Part shown: positions 33,001-36,000 of the stretch, in pieces
How positions within the stretch are numbered: position 1 is the first letter of the stretch
Layout of the letters: every line of letters begins with the position of its first letter
IMG/VR virus record: IMGVR_UViG_2718218305_000010
DNA: 47,284 nucleotides
Strand: one strand, 5' to 3'
Source of the DNA: a virus
Taxonomy: Duplodnaviria; Heunggongvirae; Uroviricota; Caudoviricetes
Made by a program: the position numbers

Positions 33001-36000
33001 TCCACTACTTCTGTAAAACGGGCTGTGTGATTTGCTGGCGTTCCGTCAAAGTCAAATTCCCCCTGCATCCACACCACGGCAAGCAGCACATTTTTCGGGT
33101 TCTTTGCCAGCGCGGCTTTTGTACGACCGATGAGATCCTTATACAGCGGCCTGCCCACACCCCAGCGGGTAGAACTCTCTGAGGCACCGGTCACGTCACT
33201 GTATGTTCCATCTGCCCCGGTGGTGAAAGCTGAACCACCACGGCAGCACGGAACCAGAAGAATACCCGCATTCGCCGGTATAAACGGCAGCAGCTTTTTG
33301 GCAATATGCAGCCCCTGCCCCACGGTTCCGTACTGACCTTTCGACAGGTCAGCTTTCGGATGGTTAAGACGGCTCATGTCCTGTACATCATGCAGACAGT
33401 GGTCTGCCGGAATAATGTCGTTATATTTACAGGGAGCGCCATCCGGCGTCACTGTGCTGCGACGAGCCAGTTGCTTTATACGCGGGTCAGGACGGTCATA
33501 TGTCTGCGGCAGAGGAAGCCCCTCACCGTAAGCCATGCCGTTCGACTGCCCGGCCAGTGGAATAACGTAGTAATAATCTGGCTCCGTGGTGACCACTCCC
33601 GGATAGCCACCATCCCCCGTGCCGGGCACAACCACTGGCGTGGTCACATCCCCCTCCGCGGCAATCGCCTGCATCAGGGTATAAGGGGTTATGGCCACAG
33701 GACTACCAAACGGCTGCCAGCCCTCTTTCAGTTTGTGTGTCAGCTTTTCCGCAAGATCTGACGGCGACGCCGCCCTGACAACATCATAATGTTTAATCGA
33801 CATCGAATTTCTCCCGTGTACAGGAACAGAGTTAAAAAGCCGGAACCGGAATCAAATCACAGGATGACCATCTGCCAGTGGCTGGTCGTAAAAAAAAGGC
33901 CGCGCCATGCGCAGCCGGAAATAAAGGGATAACGATGATAGTTTGAGAAAAACAGAAATAACACTTTTGTGGCAAAGCATGGTGCCGGGTGCCTCCCGGT
34001 GAATTCAGTACCAGCACCTGAATCCGCGATTATCCCATATACCTGGTTGCTGATTGCCCCTCCGCACAGGGGGATTCACCATGCAGTAGTATTTTTAATA
34101 AACAGTAAACAAAAAAATCAAGCATTATGCAGGCTGTTTCTTTTTATCACCGGCCACAGCAATACCACAATGCCGCAGACCAGCCCCCCATCCGCCAGCA
34201 CCGACATGATTCTGCTGGTGAAATCCACCATCACCACCAGAAACAGCAGGAGTGCAGCCACAGCCAGACGCAGTTTTACCGTCACAGGTAATTCTCCAGA
34301 CGAAGACCCAGAACACCGGCAATCTCTTCCAGCACCTTGCGCTCTTCCGGCTCAATTTCGCCGTCTGCCTCCGCAATGGCCACCGCCACATCCAGCACAT
34401 CTTCCGCTTCACGCGTATCGTGTTTCACATCCTCGATCTCACGTAACGCCGCACGACGACCAGTTTTAAAGTTCGTATCCAGCTGACCGATAATGGTTGC
34501 GCTAATCGCATTAATTTCTGACGTAAACGCGGACAGCGCTGGCTGATTACGCAGTACCTGTTCGATCTTCGCTTTCTAGGAAGCCTCACATTCACCATCT
34601 GCACAGGCCACCAGGTATGCGGCGTTAATCACCGCCTGTGCCAGATCGCGTTTCTCAAACTTTCCTTTTTCCGGTTAACGTGACACACCAATAACTCTTG
34701 TCGAAAAAGCCAGCAAGCAGAAAGACCGGTATTCACAACCACCAGCGCGTTTACTGTACTGGCGTGATTTCAGTCATAAAAAAACCCGCCTGGCGACGGG
34801 TGTAAAAAATCTTCTAACGTCAGGCATAAAACGCCCATCGTTAGGGCAAATTTACCACAGATTCGGGAAAAATCAACAAAGCTATCTGGTCACCTTTTTC
34901 AGTTGTTGTTCTGCCCATGCTTCTTCAATATCAAACTGCACCACCAGCGTATCGTAAAAACGTTTAACTGTTTTTTTCCATGTATCAAGAGATATGGCAT
35001 CGGTTACATTACATATGGCATTAAATGCCTCCGTTGAAGGTAATCTTTCATAGCCACGACCACCACAACGCTGGCAGTCTCTGATAACAGGCATACCACG
35101 TTTTACCGACTCTTCACGATGAATGGCAACACCGCGCCCACGAAAATCTTTACAGGCGGTGGAAACCTCCCCCTTCCCTCCACACTCCGGACAGGCAACT
35201 TTTACCACCTCCCTGACTTTTTTCCATTCCTCCCAGTAAGACGGATACACGCCTTTTGTGCACTTTGCCCACACTGGCGGCTTACCATCCGGATACTGGA
35301 TCTTGTTTGTAAAAACCTCGCTTTCAATAAATTTTTTTCCGTGACAACAGGGGCACTGTTTTTTGCTCGCCGCGCTACGGGCATAATCTTCAAACGCATA
35401 CGAAGCCATAATACGCATCACTGCCGGTTTTATTTCTGCCGGGAGTTTTCTTAACGCCGCCACGCGATCACACCGACTGAGTGCATATTCTGTCAGCAAT
35501 TCTGTTGCCCGCTCTCTGTCATTCATACTAATGCCCATTTTCCCAAGGAACGCAGAAAACCCCATCTCAGCCCAATTCTGTGTCATGCCCTGCGCGGCCA
35601 TCACATCAGTGATACTCAGCGTATCTTTCGACGTTGAGGCCGATGCATCAGTCAGGCCGGGGGATTTTGGGGAGTAGTATTTCGGTAAATCTTCCAGTTT
35701 CATTTTTTGACCTGCCCTTCAAGCATTATGGGGTAAATCTTCACCCCCAGACGTCCACCAGATACTGGCTGAGCACGAACGATATTGATTTCATCAAACT
35801 GCTCATCGTCCATTAGCAACCCCGCATGCGTCAGCGCATCCAGCGGCGCTTTCAGAATATTGTCCAGGTCACGGCGGCGCTTATCCGGTGGCTCGGCAAT
35901 AATCTTTATCGCCAGCCTTCCGGACAGGCTTAATTTCAGCCGCTGCTGGCGAACAATAAGCGCCACAGCCCGGCGATAACGCTCACCGGCTTTTGATACA

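Follow-up and report, generated by a model that had tools for sequence, protein, structure and literature searches.

The window analysed here is a stretch of 47,284 nucleotides from the virus record IMGVR_UViG_2718218305_000010. It is a lambda-like Escherichia coli O157:H7 prophage of the Sakai Sp6 type, and this report concerns the 1,078 bp at positions 33804-34881, between the late-gene antiterminator gene Q and the sialate esterase gene nanS-p. All features of this interval lie on the minus strand (Table 1). The interval is very probably the leader and accessory-gene ("moron") segment of an Sp6-type late operon in the middle of its decay, in which two events have disabled a gene of the terB/tciA family. 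The ancestral order, as relatives show, was Q, the late promoter pR', the terminator tR', a leader, an open reading frame (ORF) of 65 codons, a DNA methyltransferase gene, tRNA-Ile(CAU)/Arg/Arg, terB, a gene for a DUF3927 protein, a small RNA (sRNA) and the terminator belonging to it, nanS-p and the lysis genes. One event is a GAG-to-TAG nonsense change at terB codon 45 and the other a deletion across an AAAG microhomology, which joined terB codon 18 to the ribosome-binding leader that belonged to the 65-aa ORF.

The remains of terB were recognized by the Pfam TerB family (PF05099), which matched the frame with 45.2 bits (cut-off 24.4; E 1.3e-11) over profile positions 2-109 of 118, while the intact homologue P0001 matches the structure of Klebsiella TerB (2JXU_A, E 2e-7) over residues 14-137. 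The frame extends from an in-frame TAA at 34677-34675 to the stop TGA at 34284-34282 and reads ...stop-PEKGKFEKRDLAQAVINAAYLVACADGECEAS-stop-KAKIEQ...ENYL; no ATG, GTG or TTG was found in it ahead of the GTG at 34632. The internal stop is a TAG at 34578-34576, where intact copies carry GAG: around codon 45 the intact homologues read ...ECEASEKAKIEQ... and the window ...ECEAS-stop-KAKIEQ.... A first-pass annotation of this DNA had described a TerB-fold ORF lacking a start codon and containing an in-frame TAG, and the Pfam match, the reading of the frame and the pseudogene with internal stop placed at 34644-34282 in RefSeq by the Prokaryotic Genome Annotation Pipeline (PGAP) all agree with it. 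The comparison with related prophages that it proposed was equally favourable, as intact 143-aa TerB-family proteins (P0001, P0007 and P0008, with 97-99% identity) are abundant there and have GAG in place of the TAG. The pseudogene is 99% identical to P0001. The true N-terminus in the intact copies is MFGIFKKKTRRAAAEIKKFEKRDL, and upstream of KFEKRDL the window shows no similarity to it. The window therefore holds no complete translatable terB, since the start and the first 17 codons are deleted and codon 45 is TAG.

The 5' lesion is a sharp junction between two parental sequences. In BLAST comparisons the homology of the leader stops at 34661, and that of terB starts at 34663. In four related loci (L005, L006, L088 and L091) the leader continues instead into GGGAAAAAGACATG, the start of the 65-aa ORF; likewise in L005, L006, the prophage PPyecE_EH1910 and the Stx2a phage LC567829 it runs to ...CCGGAAAAGGGAAAAAGACATG, the opening of that ORF. 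After the 65-aa ORF the relatives have the DNA methyltransferase, tRNA-Ile(CAU)/Arg/Arg and then the cargo, and L088 and L091 also show this ancestral layout. In 80 IMG/VR loci with an intact terB, the tRNAs are found 245-420 nt upstream of terB and the end of the leader 1.5-1.9 kb upstream, while a tRNA gene search of the whole window found none. From the sharp junction, the spacing of leader and tRNAs in the relatives and the lack of a tRNA in the window, the size of the deletion can be put at about 1.6-1.9 kb; the comparison indicates that the 65-aa ORF, the methyltransferase and the tRNA cluster were lost, together with the first 17 terB codons, in a single deletion of this size.

The two lesions are not tied to each other. 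TAG with a full 5' end occurs in L003 and L004 (a chicken isolate and an O111:H8 strain), the same deletion junction with GAG at codon 45 in L094 and L095, and both lesions together in the window and in O26:H11 strain 11368. Since each lesion occurs without the other, they are independent events. Other terB alleles were also met: L092 has an ochre codon at codon 20 (GAA to TAA), and L093 a frameshift from A5 to A4 at codons 16-17. DUF3927 is called intact in L092, L093, L094 and L095. In L003 and L004, an A7 run at codons 7-8 was considered as a further lesion and rejected, as these alleles start from a TTG located 1 nt past the ATG (P0002, P0004) and the internal stop is the only defect that PGAP flags in them. 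That terB is recurrently inactivated in E. coli prophages by independent events which leave DUF3927 and the adjacent sRNA in place is an idea that we regard as unlikely.

Three other explanations of the terB remnant were weighed. According to the first, the last 48 codons (GTG at 34428 to 34282), with one ADG motif, encode a functional mini-protein that is translationally coupled to DUF3927. Such an ORF exists, it is annotated in Sakai, where ECs_5711 ("TciA/TerB-like protein") covers only these codons of terB, it has its own family of 48 residues (PHROG 3920), and its stop overlaps the DUF3927 start. However, its sole Shine-Dalgarno-like motif, GAGG, lies 2 nt before the GTG, a poor spacing; the PHROG family is most simply the output of gene callers on the same pseudogene; and neither half suffices for a TerB domain, the Pfam match spanning residues 13-125. 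We consider a functional mini-protein quite improbable.

According to the second, terB would still function if transcription or translation slipped by one extra A at the GGAAAAAGG run and the amber codon were also read through. An extra A would indeed join an upstream frame started by GTG at 34742 to the TerB frame, and past the TAG the amino-acid sequence of the TerB frame has 100% identity to that of intact P0001. The first-pass annotation had likewise proposed that one more A in this A5 run would restore an upstream frame; this was not borne out, the run being what is left of the ribosome-binding leader of the deleted 65-aa ORF. A repair of the frame at this run was rejected, as the additional A only fuses terB to a leader ORF of 27 codons, MVVNTGLSACWLFRQELLVCHVNRKK..., which is not homologous to the true N-terminus. 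The upstream frame is leader, which precedes another gene in the relatives and does not resemble the TerB N-terminus; moreover, efficient slippage takes a run longer than A5, the reading would call for two separate recoding events, and the low divergence is explained by recent lesions and by exchange among prophage copies. A terB rescued by recoding is accordingly very improbable indeed.

Last, the lesions might be artefacts of assembly or sequencing in this one record, since errors typically show as homopolymer runs or single-base stops; for this there is practically no chance, given that 422 E. coli records carry the 1,078-bp interval at at least 99% identity, that a 49-mer with the TAG is present at 1,006 places in 577 of 5,426 complete E. 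coli genomes, and that the curated Sakai reference has the same lesions. The corresponding 49-mer with GAG is present at 928 places in 456 genomes of the same set; the interval as a whole, junction included and with a coverage of at least 80%, was found in 456 of the 5,426 (genomes, not places, being counted). Compared with Sakai Sp6, the interval differs by only one single-nucleotide polymorphism, at 34078, with gene order and lesions alike, and a 100% identical interval is found in many O157:H7 genomes. The counts of 49-mers and of the interval across genomes exclude sequencing error, and they fit neutral lesions spread both by clonal descent and through recombination from one prophage to another.

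The decaying segment stands behind a late switch of the lambda type. Q is homologous to lambda Q (PDB chain 7UBM_Q, E 1e-39); its residues 1-123 correspond to 1-124 of lambda Q and its residues 182-273 to 79-170, a match in two stretches which suggests that this Q, of the lambda type, contains an internal duplication or insertion some 60 residues long. The generic promoter scan did not call pR', because only 8 of 12 consensus positions match; the promoter was therefore assigned from the alignment with lambda pR', which covers -10 to +9 of the predicted promoter and includes the common stretch GGTAAATTTGnCnnAACGATGGG. In lambda, an AACGAT-type element induces the sigma70-dependent pause where Q loads, and the AACGAT of the window may have the same role by analogy. 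Some 65 nt from where transcription is predicted to start comes tR', which folds with a minimum free energy of -21.3 kcal/mol (z-score -2.7); the terminator scan gave 4 terminator-like sites, shuffled sequence giving 1.4 +/- 1.2. The parts of a lambda-type late switch that were looked for are hence all present: homology of Q, pR' with its pause element and an intrinsic terminator downstream. This is the arrangement described in the first-pass annotation, namely a lambda-like pR' directly after Q and a tR' about 60 nt on, and both the lambda alignment and the hairpin with U7 speak for it.

Position 34805, 4 nt before the tR' stem, is where homology with the Stx2a phage LC567829 and with PPyecE_EH1910 starts, and the hairpin and the leader downstream of it are homologous to both. 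Upstream of 34805 the Q and pR' of these two are unrelated to those of the window, so a recombination boundary sits at tR'. A constitutive late promoter with a close terminator gives a short RNA in lysogens, as described for lambda 6S RNA and for StxS (PMC7547250). The window has a likewise arranged promoter and terminator, and its core promoter and pause element resemble those of lambda; however, the body of the predicted RNA of about 65 nt is not homologous to the leader of the Stx2a phage, only the terminator being common, and no Rfam family was matched by this pR'-tR' RNA in our scan. Its identification as StxS was dropped, since the homology to LC567829 is confined to the terminator and the leader downstream of it.

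The position of the segment in the operon is that of the Shiga toxin genes in Stx phages. In the Stx2a phage LC567829 the order is Q, leader, 65-aa ORF, methylase, tRNAs, stx2AB and yjhS/nanS-p; in the Stx1 phage BP-4795 it is Q, stx1AB, a segment shared with the STnc100 region of the window, and yjhS; in PPyecE_EH1910 it is Q, 65-aa ORF, methylase, TciA/TerB, DUF3927 and yjhS. These three gene orders substantiate the earlier proposal of a slot equivalent to that of stx: the cargo of the window is located between Q/pR'/tR' and nanS-p and has flanks homologous to those of Stx phages, Stx2a phages having the homologous tR' leader and Stx1 phages the common STnc100 segment. The differences are that the cargo is unrelated to Shiga toxin, that the tRNA/methylase segment is deleted and that Q and pR' are of the lambda type, unlike those of LC567829.

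Behind terB lies a 55-aa ORF with a GTGA start/stop overlap, which the first reading had already reported and which was found at 34285-34118; its start is the GTG of the overlap with the terB stop, and it has its own GGAG Shine-Dalgarno sequence 8 nt upstream. The profile search then suggested for this peptide identified it as DUF3927 (PF13064, 60.5 bits against a cut-off of 25, E 1.5e-16, profile positions 2-50 of 53) and as "TciB-like" (PHROG 1470, E 1.5e-29). Of 69 sampled loci, about 65 have this ORF intact, and RefSeq too annotates it as an intact gene. The tciA-tciB genes of phage P1 and the intact terB-DUF3927 pairs of prophages (PHROG 632 and 1470) consist of the same two families, in the same order and with the same stop/start overlap, whereas terB in the window is truncated at its 5' end and has the amber codon. 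For P1 tciAB the predicted function is resistance to tellurite or colicin, or cell-division inhibition. In the literature DUF3927 turned up in only 2 papers, with a single mention in one of them, and our searches retrieved no paper linking TerB to nanS-p or to Shiga prophages. An assignment to anti-phage defence was dropped, since PADLOC gave only a weak match (PDC-S48, E 0.003) and none for DUF3927.

Between DUF3927 and nanS-p, the Rfam scan detected a putative sRNA of the STnc100 family with 101.6 bits (gathering score 47; E 1e-22) over model positions 1-206 of 206, although the copy in the window has internal deletions with respect to the 206-nt model and 167 nt are aligned. Published STnc_100 primers for quantitative PCR (PMC12370729) match the window exactly. 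A preprint relates STnc100 to the PasD sRNAs and places pasD directly upstream of a sialate esterase gene in NC_049952 (10.64898/2026.05.13.724894); this phage matches the STnc100 stretch of the window, whose copy is likewise directly upstream of a sialate esterase gene. RNA of STnc_100 and PasD has been detected in Shiga toxin-producing and in enteropathogenic E. coli. To judge by the model match and this context, the predicted sRNA of the window is a member of the STnc100/PasD family. Weak Rfam matches to asX2, suhB and anti-hemB fell far short of the gathering scores of these families and were put down to chance. The second terminator lies 28 nt past the STnc100 match and 86 nt ahead of the nanS-p start. 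A strong terminator before the NanS-p-like gene had been noted, and rightly (the hairpin is followed by T8), but the sRNA ahead of it had been missed. The view that the cargo is inactivated holds for terB, with its two lesions, but not for DUF3927 and the STnc100-family sRNA, which are intact.

Table 1. Features of the late-operon interval and its flanking genes, ordered along the window
Feature	Position	Strand	Basis
NanS-p type 9-O-acetyl-sialate esterase, 645 aa, next late gene	31866-33803	-	Pfam DUF1737, SASA, DUF6645; ECs_1527 in Sakai
Intrinsic terminator, 8-bp stem (7 GC) then U8	33890-33916 (hairpin 33916-33898)	-	terminator scan
STnc100 (RF02076)/PasD-family prophage sRNA	33944-34110	-	Infernal
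DUF3927 (P1 TciB-like) small membrane protein, 55 aa, intact	34118-34285	-	PF13064; RefSeq WP_000216629.1
terB/tciA-like pseudogene, without start and first 17 codons, amber at codon 45	34282-34663	-	Pfam TerB; comparison with intact P0001
Deletion junction, AAA(G) microhomology, leader joined to terB codon 17/18	34661-34663	-	BLAST to both parents
Leader (5' untranslated region) of the deleted 65-aa ORF and DNA methyltransferase module	34661-34776	-	same leader after tR' in relatives
GGAAAAAGG run, remnant of the Shine-Dalgarno region of the deleted ORF	34672-34664	-	comparison with L005, L006, L088, L091
tR' intrinsic terminator, 7-bp GC-rich stem then U7	34777-34801 (hairpin 34801-34784)	-	terminator scan and folding
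AACGAT, -10-like element at predicted +1 to +6	34837-34842	-	common to lambda pR'
pR'-like late promoter	34849-34876	-	-35 TTGATT 34876-34871, 16-nt spacer, TGgTAAATT, -10 hexamer 34854-34849
Late-gene antiterminator Q, lambda type, 273 aa	34882-35703	-	PF03589 Antiterm, 164 bits in two stretches; ECs_1524

From these features it is possible to propose how the segment would be expressed. In the lysogen, pR' would be constitutive, and RNA polymerase would pause at AACGAT and end at tR', releasing the RNA of about 65 nt. Upon induction, polymerase modified by Q would pass tR', the dead terB, DUF3927 and the terminator of the sRNA and go on to nanS-p and the lysis genes; TerB protein would not be made, while DUF3927 would be translatable from its own Shine-Dalgarno sequence.

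Some points weigh against a decaying late-operon segment of this kind with terB disabled and DUF3927 alive. The transcription, the Q-dependent read-through and the translation of DUF3927 are deduced from homology with lambda and Stx phages. The ratio of nonsynonymous to synonymous substitution rates for DUF3927 is 0.76, an uninformative pooled value that is contaminated by frameshifted copies. The tciAB name stems from a prediction made for phage P1, and by this analogy the role of the terB/DUF3927 pair is putative. Finally, PGAP models the 5'-deleted GAG alleles as a protein of 120 aa from a CTG start (P0028); therefore the deletion alone may not be accepted by all as inactivating.

Outside the interval, the prophage differs from Sakai Sp6 by an extra insertion sequence (IS) of 1.3 kb and by a diverged segment at 15-21 kb. 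The insertion, at 13246-14553, is probably an IS element and contains an ALIL pseudoknot of the type used in IS3-family frameshifting (RF01497, 13581-13697, plus strand, 121 bits). The segment at about 15000-21000 has up to 89 mismatches per kb, against more than 99.9% identity in the rest of the window, and looks like a mosaic recombination tract in structural genes. Two further RNAs were also recognized: a sok antitoxin RNA adjoining hokD (37734-37908, minus strand, 114 bits) and a P22-type sar antisense RNA (10397-10463, plus strand, 67 bits). On the strand opposite to the interval genes, PGAP places a partial "hypothetical protein" pseudogene at 33780-33923 (plus strand), spanning the terminator and the nanS-p start, which is most likely an annotation artefact.

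The counterparts in Sakai Sp6 are ECs_1524 for Q, ECs_5711 for the TciA/TerB-like fragment, ECs_5712, and ECs_1527 for NanS-p. Since the terB pseudogene and DUF3927 are given by RefSeq/PGAP, and ECs_5711 and ECs_5712 by the Sakai annotation, the finding is already public; the biology of the interval is ordinary prophage decay, already annotated, and the result matters mainly for correct annotation. The analysis shows a non-Stx prophage of O157:H7 whose stx slot is occupied by a terB/tciA gene that is dead, a DUF3927 gene that is still live and an sRNA of the STnc100/PasD family, and it shows that the Sp6-type lineage lost the methyltransferase/tRNA module in a single microhomology deletion. 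This reconstruction could serve as a mark in tracing recombination among the lambdoid prophages of enterohaemorrhagic E. coli (EHEC), some strains of which carry a chromosomal ter island. If the doubtful idea of a recurrent loss of terB were true, DUF3927 and the sRNA could be the selected cargo, and the phage TerB could be dispensable or counter-selected, for example in EHEC with the chromosomal ter island.

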